Source: a virus
Taxonomy: Duplodnaviria > Heunggongvirae > Uroviricota > Caudoviricetes
DNA length: 64,000 nt
IMG/VR virus record: IMGVR_UViG_3300021319_000003
Reading direction: 5' to 3' (one strand)
Part shown: positions 12,520 to 62,417 of the stretch, piece by piece
Layout: every line of letters begins with the position of its first letter
How positions within the stretch are numbered: the first letter of the stretch is position 1
Translations under genes and position numbers: made by a program
Notes under the pieces: generated by a model
Told to the model about the DNA's origin: nothing
Seen by the model: only the letters and a program-made list of their open reading frames with translations
The model's database searches: none

Positions 12520-12738
12520 ATGAGAATTGGTAACATAATCATCAATCCGCGGCATATATGCTACGCAGAGATAATCGAGAACAACGATTGGCTCGGCATT
12601 CAGGATGGCTATCTCATCCAATGTAAACTGGCTGACGGCAGAAAAATCAAGATAAAGGATTCAGACGGCAGAGGCTTTTCTTGTTTTGAAGCCGACGATG
12701 CTCTGGATAAGATTAACGACGCGCTGGAGGAAGAATAG
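12520..12738 (+). CDS. hypothetical protein
   Basis: 72-aa ORF with GAAGGGAATAGGATATG ribosome-binding site. Confidence 0.5.
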   Translation: MRIGNIIINPRHICYAEIIENNDWLGIQDGYLIQCKLADGRKIKIKDSDGRGFSCFEADDALDKINDALEEE

Positions 12739-12739
12739 C

Positions 12740-13180
12740 ATGAAATATCTGTTCCTTGATGTTGACGGTGTGATGAATTCCGCTGCAGACCGGTTCTCTG
12801 TGAAGCTCATAAGCGATAAGCCATTTGAGCTCTTGAAGAAAATCATAGATGAAACCGGCGCAAAAATCATACTGTCATCATCATGGCGCGCTGGTTATGA
12901 GCATGGTACTTGCGACCGGCTCAAACAGCGTTTAGCTGAATACGGCATGGCCATAGAGGATGTAACGCCTATTAACAACAATAGACGCGGAGAACAAATC
13001 CGGGAATGGCTTATAACGCACGACTATGATGAGAATGTCGATACTTTTGCCATATTGGATGACGAGGACTTCGATATTCTGGCCCTCTATCCGGAACAAA
13101 TGGTCAAGACGGATGAAATGGTAGGATTAACGGATTATCAAGTCTGGAAGTGTATCGATAGGTTAAATCGAAAGAAATAA
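12740..13180 (+). CDS. HAD-superfamily hydrolase-like protein
   Basis: Start moved to the internal ATG with GGAGGAAGAATAGCATG ribosome-binding site. N-terminal LFLDVDGVMNS is a HAD motif I (DxDG). Confidence 0.5.
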   Translation: MKYLFLDVDGVMNSAADRFSVKLISDKPFELLKKIIDETGAKIILSSSWRAGYEHGTCDRLKQRLAEYGMAIEDVTPINNNRRGEQIREWLITHDYDENVDTFAILDDEDFDILALYPEQMVKTDEMVGLTDYQVWKCIDRLNRKK

Positions 13181-21636: not shown

Positions 21637-21711
21637 GCCGATGTAGCTCAATAGGGAGAGAGCACCGAAACTGTAACCTCGGCGACCCAGGTTCGAGTCC
21701 TGGCATTGGCT
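21637..21711 (+). tRNA. tRNA with atypical (9-10 nt) anticodon loop, isotype unresolved
   Basis: Acceptor GCCGATG/CATTGGC, D arm GCTC...GAGC, T arm CCAGG-TTCGAGT-CCTGG. The anticodon arm has only a 4-bp stem CCGA/TCGG with loop AACTGTAACC. Confidence 0.5.
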
Positions 21712-21862: not shown

Positions 21863-22003
21863 AACAATTTCCTGGACGCCCACTGCAGCGTGGTATCATT
21901 ACCCCCCCTGAGCCAAGTACCAAATGCAGTATTCTATGAATAATCCCCTGCAAAGGGATTAGATATATGTTGTTGAGTCCCAGACGGTCTTAATGACAAA
22001 AAA

Positions 22004-22022
22004 TGGCTACTATTCGGCCACG
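22004..22022 (+). repeat. spacer repeat TGGYTACTATTCGGCCAC (copy 1 of 2)
   Basis: Near-identical 19-mer recurs at 22231-22249 in the next inter-tRNA spacer. Confidence 0.4.
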
Positions 22023-22091
22023 AGACTGCCTTAATCCGTCGGTAGAATTGGAAAACAGAGTAGTTCCTGAGCATGAAATAACTGCTCAACC

Positions 22092-22230: not shown

Positions 22231-22249
22231 ATGGTTACTATTCGGCCAC
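22231..22249 (+). repeat. spacer repeat TGGYTACTATTCGGCCAC (copy 2 of 2)
   Basis: Matches 22004-22022. Confidence 0.4.
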
Positions 22250-22324
22250 TCATGTCGGCTTACAACGGCCCTGATATGAGGGAAACAGAATAGGTCCTGG
22301 GTATGACCTAACTGCCTACGCCCT

Positions 22325-23969: not shown

Positions 23970-24296
23970 CCATAAAACATGCGTGACCTGACTGCTGGTT
24001 GCCAAGAGAACCATGCAGCGAATAAAGAATGCAGAGAGGCTGTACCGCTTCCTGCAAGCCTCCGGAGCGCCCAGAAAGAAACTTGGCCAGTGGTAGAAAG
24101 TCTCCAATGAGGACACCGTATGAACGCCTAAAGAAATACGGTACATCCGGCCCTAGAGGACAAGCCGGATAGGTGCAAGGCTTTCACGGTTCGACCGTGG
24201 GCAACGGCAAGGAAAAGCCGTTAAAACCCGGCACGAGAGGCTACACCGACGCTGAGTAGCCAAGCTGTTTGAGACGAGCAGCAATCAAAAAATACC

Positions 24297-24323
24297 TGCC
24301 TCCTTGGCAGGTATGATGCAATA
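24297..24323 (-). terminator. intrinsic terminator for a minus-strand transcript
   Basis: Perfect 8-bp stem TACCTGCC/GGCAGGTA followed, on the minus strand, by a T7 tract. Confidence 0.6.
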
Positions 24324-24361
24324 GATATAAAAATAGCCGGGAATATCGTTTTATGCAAGTA

Positions 24362-24451
24362 TTAGGACTTAAACGCTAAAACTACGAGTGCGACGGCATA
24401 CAGCGCATCGCGCAAAGAGTCGAAAAACTCCGGAGTCAAGGATAATTCCAT
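24362..24451 (-). CDS. small minus-strand peptide (29 aa, hydrophobic C-terminus)
   Basis: MELSLTPEFFDSLRDALYAVALVVLAFKS with AGAAAGGAAG ribosome-binding site 8 nt upstream. Intrinsic terminator lies 40 nt downstream. The only credible minus-strand gene in the phage region. Confidence 0.4.
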   Translation of the reverse strand: MELSLTPEFFDSLRDALYAVALVVLAFKS

Positions 24452-24806
24452 GGCTAAATCTTCCTTTCTAAGTTTTTTGGAAAAACTTCAGCGGGGCGGG
24501 CAGGTCGCGAGGTCTTTTGCAAGATTGCGAGCTGTTATCCCATACCTGGCCTACATGTATTGCTACCGTGCTTGCCCAGTAGCAAGGAATGCTCGGTGAG
24601 GAGCATTTGTTATGCATGTTTTGTGAAAGGTAGATAAAGTATTTTTACGATATTCTCAGCCGATGTCTATTGTATCATACGTGTCAAGGAAAAGACGATA
24701 AAACCCGATAAGGAAAAAAATCGTATAAATTCCCCCTGGCGGTAGAGGCAACGGTTGACCGCATATCCGAAGGCGGCAGGATGTAAAACAAGTCGCCCCC
24801 ATAATG

Positions 24807-24887
24807 AGGCAGTAGCTCAAATGGCTAGAGCGGACGAGAAAGCAAATGGGGCTTTCTTATGATGGTGGTTCGATTCCTCCCTGCCCC
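24807..24887 (+). other. degenerate tRNA-like element
   Basis: Acceptor-like GAGGCAG/CTGCCCC, D arm GCTC..GAGC, T-arm-like GGTGG-TTCGATT-CCTCC with a central mismatch, non-canonical anticodon arm. Confidence 0.3.
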
Positions 24888-24898
24888 TATATCATACA

Positions 24899-24969
24899 TC
24901 CCCAAAGCTCCTCCGGCAGAGCTCGTAAGGCTACGGCTTGCGGCGAAGGTTCGAATCCTTCTTGGGGGT
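24899..24969 (+). other. tRNA-like element with non-canonical anticodon region
   Basis: Acceptor TCCCCAA/TTGGGGG, D arm GCTC-CTCCGGCA-GAGC, T arm GAAGG-TTCGAAT-CCTTC. Central arm does not fold canonically. Confidence 0.3.
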
Positions 24970-24974
24970 ATCAT

Positions 24975-25029
24975 GCTCAAAGTCTGGGGGACACCGGCCG
25001 GTAGACAGGTTCGATTCCTGTATTGAGCA
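24975..25029 (+). other. mini tRNA-like minihelix (acceptor + T arm, ~55 nt)
   Basis: GCTCAAA...ATTGAGC acceptor and ACAGG-TTCGATT-CCTGT T arm with a single ~22-nt internal segment. No D or anticodon arm. Confidence 0.35.
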
Positions 25030-25149
25030 ACATTGTTCTGAGGGAAATGATCAATCTTTTCGGAACAAACATTGTGCCACAATGATTTCCAGACGTGGCA
25101 TCCCCCGCCTGAGGGATGGTAAAAGCATATCAGGCGCCTATAATGTTCC

Positions 25150-25221
25150 AACTCTGGGAGCTATGCTTATACTGGATAACCAATCCAGTACATAAGGCAG
25201 GTTCGATTCCTGCAAGGAGCG
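25150..25221 (+). other. tRNA-like 3' half / degenerate tRNA
   Basis: T arm GCAGG-TTCGATT-CCTGC plus acceptor-like 3' strand. 5' partner poorly matched. Confidence 0.25.
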
Positions 25222-26594
25222 CTTATCCAATCTCCACCGTGCGCAATTGGGCGCCGGAAATGTAAAAGGGTCGCTACCTTTACAGGCGATGTTAAATCCA
25301 TGATGCTGCCTTGGGAGCCGGGCATCAAGATGTTTCCCGATATTAAAATCGGGCACCAATTGGCTATCGGGTGTGTATAAGCTTAGGATAGCCCGTGAGG
25401 TCAAGCTTCCGCGACGATGAAGGTGTAAAGCACGTTAAACAGCTCCATGAATATTTCGCGGGTTTTCCGAAGTTCTAAGAATCGGGCGTTCAATGGCTGC
25501 GAGCGCGTAAATAGACAGCCAGCTTGAGTCACCGTGGACCCCGGATGTCCCGAAAGGAGCATGCCGGACAGGCGATAAGGCCGCGTTCCACGACACGAAA
25601 GCTTTCCTTGCCCGGCACGGTAGGTTAAACCGGGATAAGGGCTCCATTACCCTTGGCTGTAACCAGAATAGGCCAACCGCGTTTTTGGGTTCGCACTGCT
25701 GTGTGCAGGCGTCTCGATTACCCGGTGCCAACAGCCGAAGAGATGACCTTTATCGGAGCGTTCGCTATCGGACAATTGCTGAGGAAGTAAGAACTAAAGG
25801 CCACGGTTTTTAGCACTCAGAATAACGACGCGAAGGCATTCCTTTCGGTGGAGGTATACCGAAGAATATAAAACCTGGTCCACCCCGATAACGCCGTAAA
25901 GTACAAACGGTAGCTCGGTTCAGTGGTAGCAAGGTTGCGCCAAGCGTACCTGGATTACTTTTATCTGGATGAGCTAAAGTACACAGCTTATCAACTTAAG
26001 GATAATAACAGGCACGAAGGTGATTTAGCCTCCAAGGCGAAAAACGGCGTAGGGTAAGGGCACTACGTAATAAGCCGCCCGAGTCGGAAGAACCGACATA
26101 AAACCTGCATAAGATAACTGCTTGGCACAGGGTTAAGCAGGGAAACCGGTGGCTACGGCAGTAATCCGGTAAACGCCAAAGACATGTGGGCCTCCCCTGC
26201 GGGGTGAGTAAGTTACTTGGCGGCCGTAAAAGGAATTCATAAAAAAAAGCGAGAACTCGGTCATGGAGACTAACCCATCTCCAAATTCTCCAGATACTGC
26301 TTATCCTTTCGGGTATCATAGCTCATTCGCGACAAATGCGGAAGGAGTACCTTGTTCCGTATAGCGCAATGCGGAGCATGCTATTATTAGACCTCGTAAG
26401 CAAAGACAGGGACAGCAATCTCGTTCAAATCGGTAAAGCTTACCCCCCAGGTATCGGGCAGTTATTTGCCAAAGCTTGGATGGGTCAATCCGACACAGTG
26501 CTGCTGTATCTCGGGCACTAAAAACCTGCACTGGTACTTCATCATCTTTCATACCAGTAAAAGCGTTTAATAGCCTGACCCGAAAGGGTCATAT

Positions 26595-26992
26595 GGGGAC
26601 GAAATTGGTTTCGACAGGGTGTTGAAGCCGTAAGATTCGCAGACCGATGGTTATGACGTCTAACTCATTAACCGCTAAATTTAACTGACGAAGTTGAATA
26701 TCGTCTCGCTGCCTAATCTGCCGTAAGGTAGATTGGTTAGCCCCTATCGTATCACTAGCTGTGAGCAGGGCGGTAGGTTTCAAATAAACACAGCAAACGT
26801 CAGGAGGCCCGCTCGACGTAAACAACACGGGGAGTTTTCCTGCTTTCGAAAAAGCAGGTGGTGGAGGTGTAGACCATTACGCTTTGTTCGGCTGGTTACA
26901 CCCTAGAGAATGGCGCTCTTAAAAATGCCTATTGCGATAATGTCTTACAGGTGGATGCATTTTGGACACGGGTTCGACTCCCGTCGTCTCCA
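26595..26992 (+). ncRNA. ssrA: tmRNA (ssrA), tag reading frame ...DEVEYRLAA*
   Basis: 5' GGGGACGAAATTGGTTTCGACAGGG matches the tmRNA 5' consensus. 3' T arm ACGGG-TTCGACT-CCCGT and acceptor CGTCTCC pair with the 5' GGGGACG. Internal ORF GAC GAA GTT GAA TAT CGT CTC GCT GCC TAA ends in LAA like canonical tags. Confidence 0.75.
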
Positions 26993-26995
26993 CGG

Positions 26996-27023
26996 CCGCG
27001 ACAAGGTTAACGTCTTGAAGCGG
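26996..27023 (+). repeat. bipartite hairpin, GTTAACGT-loop family copy 3a
   Basis: Outer stem CCGC/GCGG, inner stem CAAG/CTTG, loop GTTAACGT. Begins 4 nt after the tmRNA 3' end. Confidence 0.65.
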
Positions 27024-27030
27024 CAGCCAC

Positions 27031-27062
27031 CGTTCCGATGAGGTTAACGTCTCAAAGGAACG
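27031..27062 (+). repeat. bipartite hairpin, GTTAACGT-loop family copy 3b
   Basis: Outer stem CGTTCC/GGAACG, inner stem TGAG/CTCA, loop GTTAACGT. Tandem with copy 3a. Confidence 0.65.
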
Positions 27063-27190
27063 AAAATTACGGAGCTTAAGAAATCAGCCATATCGGCTGA
27101 TTAAGGCAAATCTATTGAAATGTTTTCCGGAAGCTTGCACCGGATTATAGATTTGTCTTAATGAACTGATATGAGAAAGGGGAAAATATT

Positions 27191-27724
27191 TTGTTAGCTT
27201 TTGCGATGGATTACGAAGACGCGCTCCGTAAAACGGACCGTGCAAACTGGATGAACCCAAACACAAAGTGGTATTACGGTGGATGGGAAACAGAGATTGT
27301 TGTTGACAAGAATACCTGGAATAACATCCAGATGGTATCAGTCGATAAAGAAGACAATGTACATGGATATTTTAGCGTAGCTGTCGACGAAACGCTTAAC
27401 AGGCTGGCCAGTATGAGTGTAATCAACTATGGCCCCAAGTGTGACCTTGTTTTTTCAAAAGACTTTTACCAGTTCTTAAAATATCTATTCGTCGATAGAG
27501 GGTTTCACAAGTTGGAATGGACAGTGGTAATTGGGAACCCGATTGAGAAGATGTATGACCGTTTTTGTAAAAAAGCGGGCGGAAATATTATCGGCATTTC
27601 TCACGATTCGGCAATGTTACGTGACAGAAGACCGTATGACCAGAAACACTATGAGGTTTTTGATAGAGGCGTAATCGCCTATCTGGAAAGCAAAGGCATA
27701 AAAGATAAATGGAAAAGAAAGTAA
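27191..27724 (+). CDS. GNAT-like acetyltransferase fold protein (weak)
   Basis: 177 aa. C-terminal FHKLEWTVVIGNPIEKMYDRFCKKAGG resembles GNAT motif A. TTG start with GAAAGGGGA ribosome-binding site. Confidence 0.45.
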   Translation: MLAFAMDYEDALRKTDRANWMNPNTKWYYGGWETEIVVDKNTWNNIQMVSVDKEDNVHGYFSVAVDETLNRLASMSVINYGPKCDLVFSKDFYQFLKYLFVDRGFHKLEWTVVIGNPIEKMYDRFCKKAGGNIIGISHDSAMLRDRRPYDQKHYEVFDRGVIAYLESKGIKDKWKRK

Positions 27725-28603: not shown

Positions 28604-28823
28604 ACTTCCGGAGCAAGTAATCGAAAGTATTAATGCAGGTATAGCTAAAGCGCATGAAGCGATTTCGGCTCACGACCGCATCCTTTCAATGAACAAATCT
28701 CATAAAAGATATTGGCAGATAAATAAAGCTTATCGACTTTTGCAGTCAAAAGCGGAAATTGTGCTGCCACACGAAATTCACCAAATCGTGACAACCATAA
28801 AATTGTCAAGGAAAAGACATTAA
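28581..28823 (+). CDS. hypothetical protein
   Basis: 80-aa ORF overlapping the upstream gene. Confidence 0.45.
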   Translation: MVRDMQTKLPEQVIESINAGIAKAHEAISAHDRILSMNKSHKRYWQINKAYRLLQSKAEIVLPHEIHQIVTTIKLSRKRH

Positions 28824-29267
28824 AACCCATCACAGCAGGAGCGTCTGTGAATATGTCGAGCTCGCACCCAGGAGTCAATAGCCGTGTTAGAGTCCGGCGA
28901 CGTAGAGGTCAAATACTTAGTCATAACAGTAGTGGCACCCCGGTAAGGGGGAGGTGTACGGTGCAAGTCCGTACGGACATTGACAAGAGAGCTTCAGAAC
29001 CTGCAGTAAAGCAGTAAAAATCCTCCGCCCACGTTTGCAACGGGTTTAGGGCGTAAAAGATGTAAGCCAGTCCGGCCGAACGCAATAACCTGCCGATGTG
29101 CACTTCAAGCAGGAAGGGTGCTGCCGCCTTAAGATAAGAAAAGCACCTCACGCGGGAACTTCCGTCGTTCCGCCCGCGTAATTTATTAAAAAGGGGATAA
29201 AAATGAGTTTTCAAGATTGGCTTGATGACGAAGAATTATAAAGTCGGTTATCGCATCTAATATCATG

Positions 29268-29319
29268 TACTCTGGTCTGGTGGCCTTTTGGAAGAAGCAG
29301 GTTCGATTCCTGCAGAGTA
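29268..29319 (+). other. mini tRNA-like minihelix
   Basis: Acceptor TACTCTG/CAGAGTA and T arm CAGG-TTCGATT-CCTG with a ~22-nt internal segment beginning GTCTGG (also found in the 24975 element). Confidence 0.35.
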
Positions 29320-29885
29320 GATACCTCTCTTGGTTGCGACAAGAGCGTAATTGGACAGGCCTGAATTCACCTGTCGGAGCTGAACGAGAAACAGCAAAAA
29401 CACCTGCGCCAACAGGTGATTGGCGTTGCCGCGCCGCGTATTTACTGCTATGCGTAAGAAAGCAGCGTAAACCTGATTGCAGGACTGATCATCCTGAAAA
29501 ATGACTGTACGAAAATCAGTTACCGAAATGACAGGGTTAGATTTCGGCGGATACCATGACAGACCAAGCATCATGGGATGCCGTGACAAGGCAAAGCCGG
29601 TTGTCAAGGACAAGACATAAACCCCAAGACATCACTTAGCTGATGATGCTCTGTCGGGAAGAGTCATATACTAACCAAAAAGCGGGCGGCTATATGCCCC
29701 AGGATACTGCATTAACAGTCGGGTATCAACGCAATTATATAATAAAGGGGCCATCAGTAGTCCACTGCAAAGGACGAGTCTGTAGAATGACGGGTTGGCA
29801 TCCTCCGTTTCGAGCTTCGTAAAAGTATCACGGGAGTTGCGGTAGGATTTGCAGCTACCGCAGCAACATTCCCGTTTATATCATG

Positions 29886-29915
29886 TCCCCAACGAGGTTA
29901 GCGTCTCAGCGGGGA
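29886..29915 (+). repeat. bipartite hairpin, GTTAGCGT-loop variant (family copy 4)
   Basis: Outer stem TCCCC/GGGGA, inner stem GAG/CTC, loop GTTAGCGT. Confidence 0.55.
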
Positions 29916-30177
29916 GGAATCCGTTTTAGTTTACCCTGAGGAATAGGCAATGATGAGTGCGCAATTATCTAACTGAAACAAAGGGTAAATGAGAGCCTGC
30001 AAGGCAACCAGGTGCGGAAATGGTATGCAGAAAACCATAACCTGCCGGAGACTTGACTGGCCGTTATAGATGTCAAGCGCAGAATACCGCGATAGGTGTA
30101 TCGAGGGAGTAGGCGAACTCCCGACGTTAGCAAAAAAACTCACTAGAGACGGCAAAATGCCATGTCGTCTCGATTAA

Positions 30178-30219
30178 GGACCCCTAGCTCAGTTGGTTAG
30201 AAGCCCTGAGGGGTCCACC
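30178..30219 (+). other. tRNA-derived hairpin: acceptor stem GGACCCC/GGGGTCC closed over a D-arm-like loop
   Basis: GGACCCC-TAGCTCAGTTGGTTAGAAGCCCTGA-GGGGTCC-ACC. Its 3' 17 nt, GYCC-GAGGGG-TCCACC, recur at 31048-31064. Confidence 0.4.
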
Positions 30220-32038: not shown

Positions 32039-32039
32039 G

Positions 32040-32342
32040 TCAATAACCCCCGTCTAGCGCTTTGCGCTTGAAGGCGGGAGCTTGCGAAAGCAAGCTCTTA
32101 CCGACTAGCCTAAGTCCGGTATTAGACAAGTGCTTGAAAAAGCCTCGGACTACGTTGTTTTCGTTATCACACCCGTGGGTGTTTATCCTAGCTCCCCGCT
32201 CTGTGTAGGCTCTGTAAAAGTTCTGAGAGGAGGAACGGTCAACCTAAGGACGGCCCGCCATTGCGGGCAAGCGATTACAACATTGGCGAAGGGTAGATTT
32301 ACTCTAATTTGAAGCTTCAGCTTCGGAAAGGAGGTACACGTT
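32040..32342 (+). ncRNA. putative IscB omega RNA
   Basis: ORF-free, hairpin-rich region (for example GCGCTTTGCGC and GGGAGCTTGCGAAAGCAAGCTCTT) directly 5' of iscB, which is where IscB guide RNAs are encoded. Confidence 0.45.
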
Positions 32343-33611
32343 ATGTTCGTGTACGTTATCAATAAAAACGGACAACCGTTAATGCCTTGTAAACCTCAGA
32401 AAGCTAGAAAGCTGCTGAGGGAAAACAAAGCTATGGTTGTAAAATATGAGCCGTTTACAATTAAGTTGAAATATGGCTCAGCTGGCTATAAACAGCCAAT
32501 AACTCTTGGTATTGATGCTGGCTCTGTACATATCGGAGCCTCAGCATCAACAGAGAAACAAGAATTATATGCTTCAGAAACGATTATGCGCTCTGGTGAT
32601 GGCAAAGCATCTATTGTAAGGCTTTTGGCTAAACGGTTAGAACTTCGTCACAGTCGCCGGAACCGCAAGACACGGTATCGCAAAGTAAGATTTTTGAATC
32701 GGGTTCGCCGTAAACACAAAGGTTGGCTTGCGCCAAGCGTGGAGAACAAAATCAATGTTCATCTAAAGCTTGTGGCGGATATCCATAAGATTCTTCCGGT
32801 AACGAAAGTTATTGTAGAAGTAGCTCAATTCGATATTCAGAAAATCAAGAATCCTGATATTTCTGGGGTCGAATATCAGCAGGGAGAACAGTTTGGATGG
32901 GCGAATGTTCGTGAATACGTATTATTCCGTGATGGTCATCAATGTCAGTGCTGTAAAGGGAGTTCTGGCGACCCAATACTCAATGTACATCATATTGAAA
33001 GTCGTATGACTGGAGGCAATGCGCCGAATAACCTGATAACGCTTTGTGAAACCTGCCATCAGGGATATCATCAAGGCAATATCTCTTTACCGAAGACAAT
33101 ACATCGTGGCATGAGATTCCGAGACGCGACTTTCATGGGAATTATGCGTTGGGCTTTTTACAACAAGCTTAAAGAGCAATATCCTGATGTGCATTTAACA
33201 TACGGCTACATCACGAAAAACACTCGCATCAAAAATGGTATTACAAAAACACATTCGGCAGACGCCTACTGTATTGCGGGCAATATCAATGCAGAACGGC
33301 TCAACTACGAATATCTTCGTAAACAAATTCGTCGGCATAACCGTAAGTTGCATCGCGAAGTGCCAGCAAAAGGCGGCGTTCGTAAGCGAGCACAAGCCGG
33401 ACATATTGTTCGGGGGTTCTGCTTAAATGACACAGTGTTTTATCAAAAGCAATGCTGGTTTGTGAGAGGTATGAGAGTCAAAGGTTCTTTTGTCTTAAAG
33501 CACCTAGACGGAACTAAGGCTGAAGTAGCACCATCAAAAATAACATTTTTGATGCATAATAATTCGTATTTAGTCGAAAGGAGAGAAGCGGCGCTCACCT
33601 CCACTCTGTAG
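32343..33611 (+). CDS. iscB: IscB OMEGA nuclease (RuvC-HNH, Cas9-ancestor family)
   Basis: N-terminal PLMP motif (NGQPLMPCKP), RuvC-I ITLGIDAGSVHIGAS, arginine-rich bridge RRNRKTRYRKVRFLNRVRRK, HNH HHIESRMTGGNAPNNLITLCETCH, and C-terminal RuvC-III (HSADAYCIAG). 422 aa. Confidence 0.8.
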   Translation: MFVYVINKNGQPLMPCKPQKARKLLRENKAMVVKYEPFTIKLKYGSAGYKQPITLGIDAGSVHIGASASTEKQELYASETIMRSGDGKASIVRLLAKRLELRHSRRNRKTRYRKVRFLNRVRRKHKGWLAPSVENKINVHLKLVADIHKILPVTKVIVEVAQFDIQKIKNPDISGVEYQQGEQFGWANVREYVLFRDGHQCQCCKGSSGDPILNVHHIESRMTGGNAPNNLITLCETCHQGYHQGNISLPKTIHRGMRFRDATFMGIMRWAFYNKLKEQYPDVHLTYGYITKNTRIKNGITKTHSADAYCIAGNINAERLNYEYLRKQIRRHNRKLHREVPAKGGVRKRAQAGHIVRGFCLNDTVFYQKQCWFVRGMRVKGSFVLKHLDGTKAEVAPSKITFLMHNNSYLVERREAALTSTL

Positions 33612-33966: not shown

Positions 33967-34063
33967 GGGAAACGTCAGGTGGCGGAAAAGAGCATTCGGG
34001 TTCGATTCCCGACGCCCTGCGGGGTCCGTGGTGGTCAGCCTGGTTCGAGTCCAGGGTTTCCCT
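33967..34063 (+). tRNA. tRNA-Ser-like (anticodon CGA), 97 nt with long variable arm
   Basis: Acceptor GGGAAAC/GTTTCCC, anticodon arm TCGGG-TTCGATT-CCCGA, long GC-rich variable arm, T arm CCTGG-TTCGAGT-CCAGG. No encoded CCA. Confidence 0.5.
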
Positions 34064-38081: not shown

Positions 38082-38837
38082 GTGTTTGATGTCGGAGACA
38101 TTGTTGATGGCCACGCCATTTGCCTGAAAGCGTTGGTAGGTAGCCATAATTATAACTTGAACACACCAAAGTCCGATAAAGACTACAAGTATTTCGTGTG
38201 GCCAACGTTTGAGGACCTTTATCGCAATCAGGAATATCATAAAGAAGTTGTCACCAATACGGAAGATTATACCATCCATGATATTCGCAAGCTTCCGAGT
38301 TTACTTTGGAAAGCGAATCTAAACTTTATTGAAATCCTGTATTCCAGAGAATTGAGCGGCAATTCTACCCTGATTGATTATTTAACAGAGAATAGGGAAA
38401 AGCTGGCAACAATGAATCTGCCTCGCTTATATGCAGCATCGATGGGAACGTCTATTCAAAAGGAAAAGCTGATGTTGATGGACTCGCCCGCTAGGCATGA
38501 GGCAATTCAAACGTATGGATACGACCCTAAGAGCGCCCATCACGCTATACGTGTAGTGGACTTTCTTACGAGGTATTATAAAACTCGATATTTTGCAAGC
38601 GCTTTTTGGTACGAACAAGATAGTATGTGCCGAGATGCATTACTTTGGTTCAAAGAAGGGGAATTTTCACTGAAAACGGTAAAGTTTCATTTGGATAATT
38701 ACCGCAATCACGCAAAGGAAGTGGAATCCTTTTTTGTGGACCAAAAACCAAACCCCCAGCCGCTTGAAGATTTAAATAAATTCATAAAAGCGGCAATACA
38801 CGAAAGAATAATAAACACAAAAAGAGGCGATGCGTAG
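38082..38837 (+). CDS. Pol-beta-type nucleotidyltransferase fold protein
   Basis: GSHNYNLNTPKSDKDYKYFV fits the GS-x(9-13)-[DE]x[DE] nucleotidyltransferase signature. 251 aa. GTG start with GGAGG ribosome-binding site. Confidence 0.55.
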   Translation: MFDVGDIVDGHAICLKALVGSHNYNLNTPKSDKDYKYFVWPTFEDLYRNQEYHKEVVTNTEDYTIHDIRKLPSLLWKANLNFIEILYSRELSGNSTLIDYLTENREKLATMNLPRLYAASMGTSIQKEKLMLMDSPARHEAIQTYGYDPKSAHHAIRVVDFLTRYYKTRYFASAFWYEQDSMCRDALLWFKEGEFSLKTVKFHLDNYRNHAKEVESFFVDQKPNPQPLEDLNKFIKAAIHERIINTKRGDA

Positions 38838-58151: not shown

Positions 58152-58691
58152 ATGGAGCTAAAGAAGCTAAGCAAATTCTTATCTCTGATTTTGCGCCATA
58201 AGCCAGAGACAATAGGCATCACGCTTGACGAGCATGGCTGGGCTAATGTGGAAGAACTGCTGCAAAAAATAAATAAGACAGGCCACAGTATAGACCTTCC
58301 CCTGCTGGAGAGAATTGTCGCAGAGAACGACAAACAAAGGTTTTCGTTCAGCGCAGACAGAAAAAAGATAAGAGCCAACCAGGGACATTCGATACATGTG
58401 GATGTGGAGCTGAAGCCGGTGAAACCGCCCGCCGTACTATATCACGGTACTGTAGAAAAGAACAGCGCTTCCATTGAGGCAAAAGGACTGATAAAAGGAA
58501 ATAGGCTGCATGTACATTTATCGGAGAACGTAGAAACCGCGACAAAGGTAGCGGCCAGACGCAAAGGCAAGAATATTATTTACAGGGTGTTTGCTGGTGA
58601 GATGTACAGGGATGGTTTCCTGTTCTACCAGTCCGTCAATGGCGTATGGTTAACGGACAGAGTGCCGGCAAAATATTTGTCAAGGTTATGA
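58152..58691 (+). CDS. kptA: RNA 2'-phosphotransferase (Tpt1/KptA family)
   Basis: LSKFLSLILRHKPETIGITLDEHGWANVEELL, HGT, and R-x-HVHL motifs across 179 aa match the KptA/Tpt1 consensus. Confidence 0.8.
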   Translation: MELKKLSKFLSLILRHKPETIGITLDEHGWANVEELLQKINKTGHSIDLPLLERIVAENDKQRFSFSADRKKIRANQGHSIHVDVELKPVKPPAVLYHGTVEKNSASIEAKGLIKGNRLHVHLSENVETATKVAARRKGKNIIYRVFAGEMYRDGFLFYQSVNGVWLTDRVPAKYLSRL

Positions 58692-60639: not shown

Positions 60640-61866
60640 TTATATATCTAAATTCAATTTTCCGCAGCCCAGATAAATCATAGTCTTGAAATACTCATCG
60701 TTACGGAATCCGCGGGCACGGCGCTTTATATTCTGGATAATGCTATTCATGCCTTCCAAAATAGCGTTGGTGTAGCGATAGTCAAAGTAATTGAGTATTT
60801 CCTGTCAGTGATTTTTTAGCAGTTTAGCAAAGTTTTTCATGGGGGTAAGTCGCGAACGTGTGAGCCAATTGTACAGCTGGTTAAGACGCTCTTCAGCGGT
60901 GGTGCGGTTAAAAGATGTCTCGTAAATATCCTGCAGGGTAACGCGCATAGCGTAGGCTCTAGCCGTTTTCAGGCGCTTGTGCATTAGCGACTCCTTGCGC
61001 TCAAGCTGTTTATCGGTGAGATTCGCATCATTCTTGAGCCAGAGCCATTTGCTCTTGTTAAGCAGGTGCTTATACCAAGGACCTTGCCTGACTTCATCGC
61101 GGCGAACCTCGTCCAGAGCTTCATTGATATGCTTGATGACATGGAATTTATCGATGACAGTGCTGCTGTTGACGAAGTGCTCGTTAATGCCTTTCTTGAA
61201 GCCCAAGGACATATCGCAGGTGACGATTTTGATATTGCCCGGAATGCCTTTATGTTCCTTGAAGTCTTTTACGAACCGATCTACGGTGGCAGAATCTTTG
61301 CCGTTAGTAACAAAGATAACCTTGCGTTGGGCCAAGTCAACAACTACGGTGACATACTTGTGACCTTTCTTGCTGGTCTCGTCGATGCCGATAGCATTGA
61401 CTTCGGAGTAATCTTCACGGGCGCGGGCCTCATCGACATAATGCTTGATGAACCGCCAGAGGCGGGTGTCATGCTCATCTACCATATTGGCAATAGTGGC
61501 GACAGGCAGGTGCTTAGCCAGCTCCACAACCCAGCCTTCGAAGAGTAGGGTAAAACCAGAACCTTCTCTAGCCCAAGGGACGCTGACGGTTTTTACACCA
61601 TGTTCGCCGCACTTAATCCGTGGTAGGTCAGCATGGATATAGGTCTTGTATTGAAAGAAATTAAGGTGGCGCCAGGTTCTAGGCGTCGTGTCGTAGGCAG
61701 TAGTTTCAGCTTCGCATTCGGGGCAAGCAAACTTACTGCCTCTGGGAAAGGAGAGCTCTATATGAAGTTCCATAGTTCCGGATGAGTCCGGCTTGAACTC
61801 CACCTTGGATATAGACCAAGGTTCCGGCAGGTTCAAAGCTGCCGCAAATAAGTCAGTTGTATTCAT
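60640..61866 (-). pseudogene. ISL3-family transposase with an in-frame TGA (codons 60805-60807)
   Basis: The N-terminal zinc-finger and DDE ISL3 regions are intact for 353 aa. A TGA then sits where ISL3 transposases usually have Trp (KNH*QEILNYF). The conserved C-terminus YRYTNAILEGMNSIIQNIKRRARGFRNDEYFKTMIYLGCGKL continues in the same frame. Confidence 0.7.
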
Positions 61867-61945
61867 GATAAGTAAGATAACGCCTTTCTGTCTTATAATC
61901 TCATGGATATAATTCTATAAGATTTTTGGGTGGGCTTCAAGCCCT
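60640..61945 (-). mobile_element. ISL3-family insertion sequence (approximate ends)
   Basis: Encodes an ISL3-type transposase. Terminal imperfect inverted repeats GCAGCCCAGATAAATC / GAAGCCCACCCAAAAATC lie near 60662 and 61945. Inserted immediately upstream of a truncated tnpB. Confidence 0.6.
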
Positions 61946-62417
61946 TACCCACAGTAAACAGCGAAAGGCCAAGTTAGGTTCTGGTCAATGGAAAAAACAA
62001 CGTGTACGAGTTGCTCGTGTTCACGAAAAAATTACAAACACGAGGAATGATTTTCAGCACAAATTATCTTATCACTTGGTTAATGAAAATTCCCTCGTTG
62101 CCGTTGAAAAATTAAACGTCAAGGGCATGGTAAAGAATAAAAAATTAGCTAAGGCAATAAGTGACGTTGCATGGGGAATGTTCTTCGAAAAACTGGACTA
62201 TAAAACCAAAGAGCGTGGCGGGAAATTGGTAAAAATTCCAACGTTCTATCCGTCCAGCCAAACATGCCATGTCTGCGGATTTCAGAATCCAATCGTCAAA
62301 GATTTAAGCGTTCGAGACTGGGTTTGCCCGCACTGCGGAGAATCCCTCGACCGTGACCGAAACGCGGCAATCAACATCTTAAAAAAGGCGCTTTCGATGA
62401 AAACGAAAGTTGCCTAA
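61926..62417 (+). pseudogene. TnpB (IS605/IS1341-type OrfB) C-terminal fragment
   Basis: RuvC-II/III and zinc-finger region (KLAKAISDVAWGMF...CHVCG...CPHCG...DRDRNAAINI). The N-terminal ~240 aa are missing. The open frame starts exactly at the ISL3 boundary. Confidence 0.65.

Follow-up and report, generated by a model that had tools for sequence, protein, structure and literature searches.

The stretch of viral DNA analysed here (IMG/VR record IMGVR_UViG_3300021319_000003; 64,000 nucleotides, referred to throughout as the window) carries at 26595-26992 on the plus strand a complete, genuine one-piece transfer-messenger RNA (tmRNA), the product of an ssrA gene. This identity had been proposed in a preliminary description of the sequence and was confirmed by both tests named beforehand: ARAGORN called a tmRNA at 26595-26993 with the tag DEVEYRLAA*, and the Rfam family RF00023 matched with 90.7 bits (gathering score 47, E=6.1e-34) over model positions 1-374 of 374, with the two ends of the RNA pairing with each other. 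The permuted and clade-specific tmRNA models of Rfam did not reach their thresholds in the window: two candidates, tmRNA_permuted at 26933-27104 (30.6 bits) and beta_tmRNA at 29267-29360 (16.9 bits), were below threshold and were taken as echoes of T-arm-like sequence. The elements of the RNA are listed below in window coordinates, with tmRNA positions in parentheses (window coordinate = 26594 + tmRNA position; PK, pseudoknot; H, helix).

26595-26992, plus strand: mature one-piece tmRNA, 398 nucleotides (nt) to the discriminator A (ARAGORN, Rfam RF00023)
26595-26601 (1-7), plus strand: 5' strand of the acceptor stem, GGGGACG, pairing with 26985-26991 (391-397) as GC, GC, GU, GC, AU, CG and GC
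26615-26640 (21-46), plus strand: 5' strand of H2, a long interrupted helix, pairing with 26934-26964 (340-370)
26641-26674, plus strand: PK1, stems 47-50/64-67 and 54-59/75-80, with 10 of 10 pairs standard
26682-26689, plus strand: frame-setting UAACU followed by the resume codon GAC (93-95), from the sequence, the ARAGORN resume consensus and the Rfam alignment
26687-26716 (93-122), plus strand: tag frame GAC GAA GTT GAA TAT CGT CTC GCT GCC TAA, called by ARAGORN, with UAA at 120-122
26715-26734 (121-128/133-140), plus strand: H5, 8 base pairs (bp) with a GUAA tetraloop, from pairing and also present in the minimum free energy fold
26743-26794, plus strand: PK2, stems 149-155/177-183 and 164-169/195-200, fully complementary
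26798-26831, plus strand: PK3, stems 204-207/221-224 and 214-217/234-237, fully complementary
26839-26929 (245-335), plus strand: PK4 region, from complementarity, its topology uncertain
26968-26991 (T arm 374-390), plus strand: T arm ACGGG/UUCGACU/CCCGU and acceptor 3' strand CGUCUCC (ARAGORN, pairing), invariant in relatives

Architecture of the tmRNA and its tag frame

All 98 of the 98 proposed pairs are standard base pairs. The preliminary description had pointed to the 5' end GGGGACGAAATTGGTTTCGACAGGG, to a T arm ACGGG-TTCGACT-CCCGT and to pairing of the two ends into a tRNA-like domain, and each of these was found: the 5' sequence is present at 26595, the T arm lies at 26968-26984, and G1-G7 (26595-26601) pair with 26985-26991, leaving the A at 26992 as discriminator; the boundaries given beforehand thus hold to the base. 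The tRNA-like domain thus consists of a 7-bp acceptor stem with a G3:U70 pair, the discriminator A398 and a T arm with a TPsiC-type loop. The G3:U70 equivalent is the wobble pair G3:U395 within the acceptor stem, which is invariant in the three lineages compared below; this G:U pair is the identity element for alanyl-tRNA synthetase (AlaRS). The long helix H2 comprises 22 pairs, all standard, and the stop codon extends with its last two bases into H5. The PK4 region could be assigned three hairpins, an extra one at 245-264, a long one at 272-308 and a small one at 311-325, together with a candidate knot of 3 bp (296-298/333-335).

The mRNA-like domain is built from the sequence UAACU, the frame GAC...GCU GCC UAA encoding the tag DEVEYRLAA, and the stop codon inside H5. 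An A/U-rich linker precedes the resume codon and ends with UAACU at position 92, so that a UA dinucleotide stands 4-5 nt upstream of GAC: U88-A89 correspond to U85-A86 of Escherichia coli, and UAACU before GAC matches UAGUC before GCA in that RNA, in which A86 is the main determinant of frame choice (PMC2481249). The tag frame DEVEYRLAA-TAA of the preliminary description, at 26687-26716, was retained, but not the threonine placed in front of it: GAC falls on the consensus resume codon in the Rfam alignment, and the ACU codon is therefore untranslated upstream sequence. The appended peptide would be A-DEVEYRLAA, with the first alanine supplied by the charged tmRNA.

ARAGORN reported the tag as "Tag not identified". 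DEVEYRLAA is not among its ~1270 built-in tags; 28 tags of this table end in RLAA, none contains YRLAA, and the nearest entry is DENYLLAA at an edit distance of 3. The tag had also been called similar to that of E. coli, which is true only in a generic sense because the Y-x-L-A-A end is common to most bacterial tags; the tRNA-like domain, for its part, is Bacillota-like rather than E. coli-like. The 29-nt 3' half of this domain, sought in 185,579 species genomes, was identical in 24 species, of which 23 are Bacillota (Trichococcus and metagenome-assembled genomes (MAGs) of gut and rumen Clostridia, including Oscillospiraceae, Lachnospiraceae and Kineothrix) and one is a Dojkabacteria MAG. The tags of these 24 bacteria include DKTQNNTLAFAA, DNDTVA[LM]AA, AEDNLAFAA and others, with DEVEYRLAA present in none. 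A blastn comparison with their tmRNAs revealed no similarity outside the tRNA-like domain, and overall identity in a multiple alignment is 46-53%. The phage gene is thus a strongly diverged tmRNA of the Bacillota type, and its tRNA-like domain provides a lead towards the host.

The 3' CCA is not encoded, the sequence reading ...UCUCC-A-CGG both in the window and in the related lineage L043. An encoded CCA is not required for membership of the tmRNA family: several of the bacterial ssrA genes that we retrieved also lack it, including those with the same tRNA-like domain from Trichococcus, Kineothrix, Lachnospiraceae UBA6452 and Firmicutes CAG:194, and a CCA-less ssrA gene is thus normal in Bacillota.

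Conservation in related lineages

Further lineages were located by searching with the adjacent open reading frame (ORF) ORF177 (27191-27724) and with the back-translated tag. Four distinct sequences were aligned, representing three lineages: that of the window (L004-L006 and L044), L043 and L045. L043 is an NCBI metagenome contig on which the neighbouring protein is 82% identical and the tmRNA scores 84.1 bits with RF00023; L045 holds the first ~260 nt of the tmRNA directly after four tRNA genes (tRNA-Pro adjoining) and hence in a different gene order.

Between the window and L043, identity is 94.0% over the tmRNA and complete (60/60) over the block that spans resume codon, tag and H5; the upstream DNA is 83-87% identical, the downstream spacer 82.8% and ORF177 83.5% at the nucleotide level. 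DEVEYRLAA is encoded in all three lineages: the tag frame is identical in L043 and L044, and in L045 it carries just two changes, GAA to GAG and GCC to GCT, both synonymous.

Substitutions in the stems follow the proposed structure, with every one of them keeping the pairing and the remaining substitutions lying in loops and linkers. Both bases are replaced, with pairing retained, in four cases: G27-C364 becomes A-U in H2 (L043), U151-A181 becomes C-G (L043 and L045) and C154-G178 becomes U-A (L045) in PK2, and C214-G237 becomes U-A in PK3 (L045). Further changes are A38-U352 to G-U in H2 (L043), U54-G80 to U-A in PK1 (L043 and L045), C154-G178 to U-G in PK2 (L043) and C215-G236 to U-G in PK3 (L045). 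The hairpin 245-264 tolerates changes in its loop, and a fifth double change, C249-G260 to U-A, appears here after hand realignment of L045 around a loop of different length. Over the four sequences, 99.1% of pair cells are standard, a share that drops to 38-43% if the 3' partners are shifted by 1-3 columns; in a shuffle test, 4-19 of 500 shuffles reached the observed values, the statistics being modest with three lineages. Taken together, the alignment shows purifying selection, as read from sequence comparison, on both the structure of the tmRNA and its tag.

An ORF of 79 amino acids (aa) on the opposite strand (26589-26828, minus), called as a gene in public assemblies, was rejected: a 1-nt deletion in L043 breaks this ORF, leaving 48 aa with a different C-terminus, and it is thus a spurious gene call.

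Phage context and the RNA-gene cluster

The window contains ~120 closely packed small ORFs, nearly all on the plus strand, with PHROG and Pfam matches of the kind seen in large phages (NAD-dependent DNA ligase, DNA methylase, dCMP deaminase, PcfJ, a radical-SAM protein and a Mor-like activator); tRNA genes, 14-15 in all, flank the tmRNA on either side. From a Pfam scan of 122 window ORFs we considered the best 25 of 37 families (the others all with E > 9.5e-8), among which there was no bacterial housekeeping family and no tyrosine integrase. The co-directional small ORFs, the tRNA genes, the lack of housekeeping families among those considered and recurrence on a 226-kb contig bear out the earlier description of the tmRNA as phage-encoded.

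Copies of the tmRNA region with an identity of at least 99.9% come from six samples (L004-L007 and L044), the contigs reaching 69 kb. The truncated ISL3 transposase gene of the window and its neighbours are found in the same order on the 226-kb contig, a JGI assembly, and a contig of 339,914 bp is listed in the protein cluster of this transposase. A relative with a protein identity of 60% lies on a 213-kb contig, with a 260-kb contig listed in its cluster. The carrier of the tmRNA is a huge phage. In 50,697 GenBank phage records, blastn with the tmRNA gave no match and megablast with the 25 kb around it matched only a 58-nt segment of tRNA-Asn. IMG/VR was scanned for the exact 30-mer of the tag, for the back-translated tag and for the 5' 25-mer, each without a match; the 3' 29-mer retrieved two bacterial-type tmRNAs with other tags. 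The IMG/VR relatives of ORF177 with an identity of 40-43% (L001-L003) lack a tmRNA within 10 kb. Thus, there is no close relative among the GenBank phages, and none in IMG/VR by tmRNA pattern scans and the ORF177 search.

With respect to the host, a related lineage without the tmRNA comes from pig faeces (PRJEB26961), and the sample labels of the ORF177 relative at 60% identity look like those of a ruminant-gut study, which is not confirmed by any paper. The phage probably infects bacteria of the animal gut belonging to the Bacillota (Clostridia). The ISL3 transposase was tried as a further pointer to the host and rejected: a plasmid database gave only a 63% match (Bifidobacterium), and the truncated transposase gene has become a fixed part of the phage lineage.

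Further elements flanking the tmRNA, together with genes of the RNA-repair type elsewhere in the window, are as follows.

26576-26594, plus strand: 5' leader with the hairpin TGACCC-GAAA-GGGTCA and then TAT directly before G1, kept in L043 and not in L045
26993-27026 and 27030-27063, plus strand: two tandem two-tier trailer hairpins with the loop GTTAACGT, beginning at the base after the discriminator, both kept in L043
21829-21862, 22187-22220, 26993-27026, 27030-27063, 29884-29917 and 31452-31485, plus strand: the six copies of this hairpin, loop G(T/C)TA(A/G)CGT
12686-13180, plus strand: HAD_SAK_2 "Swiss Army Knife RNA repair" domain (E=4e-25)
38082-38837, plus strand: RlaP-like nucleotidyltransferase, a weak match below cutoff (E=1e-4)
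58152-58691, plus strand: Tpt1/KptA RNA 2'-phosphotransferase (E=9e-48)

An AT-rich 5' flank of the ATNAT type is common to the tmRNA and the phage tRNA genes, and a sigma-70-type promoter was not found within 800 nt upstream of the tmRNA. The trailer hairpin forms a family of six copies (~34 nt each) in the RNA-gene cluster, in which 8 of 11 pairs change on both sides; the copies sit just 3' of tRNA-Ser, the tmRNA (two copies), tRNA-Gln or unannotated stretches, and GGTTAACGTC occurs 4 times against 0.06 expected. No Rfam family matches this hairpin, and an IMG/VR search for it elsewhere with the pattern CCATCAT-N11-GGYTAACGTC was discarded, as its four hits were chance matches with neither tRNA nor stems. 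Within the phage RNA-gene cluster, the hairpin may serve in processing, in termination or in protein binding. The presence of RNA-repair-type genes together with tRNA and tmRNA genes suggests a defence of translation RNAs against host nucleases.

Several other features of the cluster were recorded. The tRNA-Ser(cga) at 33967-34063 (plus strand) was called without CCA, which the other 11 tRNAs encode; at 21637-21711 (plus strand), ARAGORN reported a "tRNA-???" with a 2-base anticodon and without encoded CCA, which scores 51 bits in Rfam. Two similar leaders of ~90 nt (aatggYtactattcggccac...) at 22003-22091 and 22233-22324 (plus strand) precede tRNA-Ser(gct) and tRNA-Asn. Two stretches, 24000-26590 and 28900-30200, are poor in ORFs, with a higher GC content of 0.50 at 24001-26000; they contain T-arm-like boxes GGTTCGATTCC at ~24947, 25007, 25199 and 29299, and other such boxes are found at ~31040, 31322, 31992 and 34098. 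ARAGORN and Rfam gave no tRNA call at these boxes except for a weak tRNA match at 24806-24888 and an ARAGORN "intron-containing tRNA-Arg" at 24573-24969, and models for GOLLD, ROOL and group I/II introns had no match in the ORF-poor stretches, which may hold unusual or degenerate tRNA-like RNAs or large non-coding RNAs of an unknown kind. Ahead of these stretches, the motif (T)GTCAAGGAAAAGAC(A/G)TTAAAACCC is repeated at 24204-24234, 24681-24711, 28803-28833 and 29601-29621 (plus strand); it may be a phage promoter or regulatory box.

Two further loci were recorded in the window. A HEARO RNA (IscB omega-RNA family) at 32039-32302 (plus strand; 83.7 bits, barely over the gathering score of 83) stands immediately before a gene for an IscB-type protein of 422 aa (RRXRR and HNH; 32343-33611, plus strand), the pair sitting in the middle of the tRNA cluster. 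The truncated ISL3 transposase (60805-61866, minus strand) measures 353 aa against ~410 aa in relatives and adjoins a TnpB fragment of 163 aa (61926-62417, plus strand; OrfB_IS605 / Cas12f1-like TNB); as this arrangement is fixed in ten sequence records from several samples, it is old and not a recent host-derived insertion.

Proposed role and comparison with known systems

The tmRNA is, in our view, very probably a functional one-piece ssrA product, encoded as an accessory gene of a huge gut phage and supplementing the trans-translation of its host. The preliminary description had suggested that host ribosome rescue is supplemented or retargeted: the former is now the best-supported reading, whilst the latter is speculation. 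In the proposed pathway, the tmRNA would be transcribed within the phage tRNA-gene cluster and cut at its 5' end by host RNase P; the 3' trailer would be removed after the discriminator, followed by addition of CCA by the host CCA-adding enzyme and by charging with alanine through host AlaRS, which would recognise G3:U70 and A73. Host SmpB and EF-Tu would then bring the charged tmRNA to ribosomes stalled on broken or stop-less mRNAs, where translation would resume at GAC, placed by the UA 4-5 nt upstream, add A-DEVEYRLAA and end with release at UAA. The LAA end should send the tagged product to proteases of the ClpXP type. As mRNA decay and RNA damage yield many non-stop complexes, the phage could benefit from more ribosome recycling in infection; the tRNA and RNA-repair genes of the window fit a general investment in keeping translation RNAs available during this time. 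Processing, charging, the SmpB partner, the fate of the tagged proteins and the benefit for the phage are inferences that draw on the conserved identity elements and on what is established about tmRNA.

Several observations weigh against this interpretation. The match to RF00023 reaches 90.7 bits, well short of the 150-155 bits scored by bacterial tmRNAs that share the tRNA-like domain. The PK4 region is atypical: the second stem of its candidate knot has just 3 bp and is invariant across the lineages compared, so that no variation bears on it, and the covariation elsewhere rests on three lineages only. Of the 13 phage tRNA genes checked, 11 encode CCA but the tmRNA gene does not, which makes the 3' maturation route of the tmRNA an assumption. 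As there is no SmpB among the best 25 of the 37 Pfam families, function of the tmRNA depends on compatibility with the SmpB of the host. In an RNA-gene scan that covered the ORF177 relatives apart from L046 and L047, the tmRNA was absent near ORF177 both in relatives at 81% identity (L040-L042, contigs of 3.5-5.8 kb) and in those at 60% identity (L034-L038, up to 10 kb on each side), with other genes, such as one with DUF6927, at the corresponding position in L034-L042. The tmRNA is thus accessory and dispensable for the wider phage group.

A different use of the RNA would be as a decoy, in which the tRNA-like domain titrates host SmpB and so inhibits host trans-translation, the tag frame being irrelevant. 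Such a role has been suggested for the ssrA of mycobacteriophage DS6A, which consists of the tRNA-like domain only (PMC4131195); here, this domain is the part closest to bacterial tmRNAs (3' 29-mer identical in 24 species), and the missing CCA could mean that the RNA is never charged. However, CCA-less ssrA genes are normal in related bacteria, G3:U70 and the discriminator A are intact, and PK1-PK3 and H5 are kept by compensatory changes. We consider a decoy very unlikely, because the block of resume codon, tag and H5 is the most conserved part of the RNA (60/60 against L043) and the tag changes synonymously only. Retargeting would instead exploit the tag itself, giving the products a different fate, or the phage RNA would act as a nuclease-resistant replacement of a host tmRNA destroyed in infection. 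The tag, with R at position -4 and an acidic DEVE core, lies outside the ARAGORN table at a distance of three edits from its nearest entry, and none of the 24 bacteria that share the tRNA-like domain has it; in its interior, the RNA reaches only 46-53% identity to the tmRNAs of these bacteria, and the RNA-repair genes and tRNA set suggest a conflict over host RNAs. Against this, the canonical Y-x-L-A-A end is kept and RLAA ends 28 known tags, which makes ordinary targeting to ClpXP the simpler expectation; no phage protease or adaptor has been identified. We therefore rate retargeting or replacement as unlikely.

A wider version of the replacement scenario joins the tRNAs, Tpt1, HAD_SAK_2, the tmRNA and the trailer hairpin with its loop GTTAACGT into an RNA-maintenance module, which would replace host translation RNAs destroyed by anti-phage nucleases; the tag would give a phage-controlled fate to the products, and the hairpin would be recognised by a phage processing or termination factor. 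This appears doubtful to us. Finally, the gene might be neither phage-encoded nor functional, being either the host ssrA, on chromosomal or prophage-junction DNA of a bacterium, or a decaying fragment acquired through imprecise excision: ssrA is a common site of prophage integration and ssrA fragments occur in phages (PMC9004378), and the fragments of an ISL3 transposase and of TnpB reveal mobile-element traffic in the window. Such an origin is scarcely credible given that the gene is full length, is embedded in 64 kb of phage-type ORFs running in the same direction and has tRNA genes to its left and right, that neither housekeeping genes nor a tyrosine integrase nor SmpB are among the Pfam families considered, and that the same arrangement is found on 69-kb and 226-kb contigs from different samples. 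In addition, the tmRNA is more conserved than its flanks and displays compensatory changes, and it shares features of the 5' flank and the 3' hairpin with the phage tRNAs.

Comparison with bacterial one-piece SsrA RNAs (RF00023; gut and rumen Clostridia, Trichococcus) reveals the same acceptor stem with G3:U70, T arm, H2, PK1-PK3, resume codon, LAA-type tag and H5. The Clostridia and Trichococcus RNAs share the identical 29-nt 3' sequence and the acceptor stem GGGGACG with the phage tmRNA, several of them likewise being without encoded CCA, and some Clostridia also have a 9-residue tag beginning with D (DNDTVALAA) on a tmRNA of ~400 nt. The phage RNA differs from them in being phage-borne, in one extra nucleotide in the D-loop region and in the extra hairpins of the PK4 region. 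With SsrA of E. coli (ANDENYALAA), it has in common an acidic or polar core followed by Y-x-L-A-A, the stop codon in H5, four pseudoknot regions and the UA dinucleotide 4-5 nt before the resume codon. E. coli SsrA has the acceptor stem GGGGCUG, the resume codon GCA (Ala), an encoded CCA and A at tag position -4, whereas the phage tmRNA has GGGGACG, GAC (Asp), no encoded CCA and R at -4; an SspB-type adaptor motif cannot be claimed for the phage tag.

Among phages, tmRNAs have been described in the Bxz1 group of mycobacteriophages (cluster C1) and Bacillus phage G (PMC4131195) and in huge phages from metagenomes (PMC7162821), and a survey found them in 402 of 18,146 phage genomes, or 2.3% (PMC9004378). 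As in the Bxz1 group, phage G, the huge phages, Melnitz and the pelagimyophages, the tmRNA presented here belongs to a large phage with many tRNA and translation genes (PMC4131195, PMC7162821, PMC9004378), and the role proposed is the same, that of maintaining the hijacked translation apparatus. It differs from known phage tmRNAs by its tag, by the absence of a riboswitch and by the lack of blastn similarity among the 50,697 GenBank phage records, and from the two-piece marine forms in being one-piece. Real tagging by phage tmRNAs has mostly been assumed in surveys of huge phages; here, selection is seen both in the RNA, whose stems show compensatory changes, and in the tag, which changes only synonymously, and this favours genuine tagging by phage tmRNAs over a role limited to soaking up SmpB. 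DEVEYRLAA is a concrete peptide that can be used in metaproteome searches. Phage tmRNAs are already known and no new mechanism is proposed: what this example adds to the known systems is, most usefully, its evidence of selection on structure and tag alike, together with a new tag and an uncharacterised lineage of huge gut phages.

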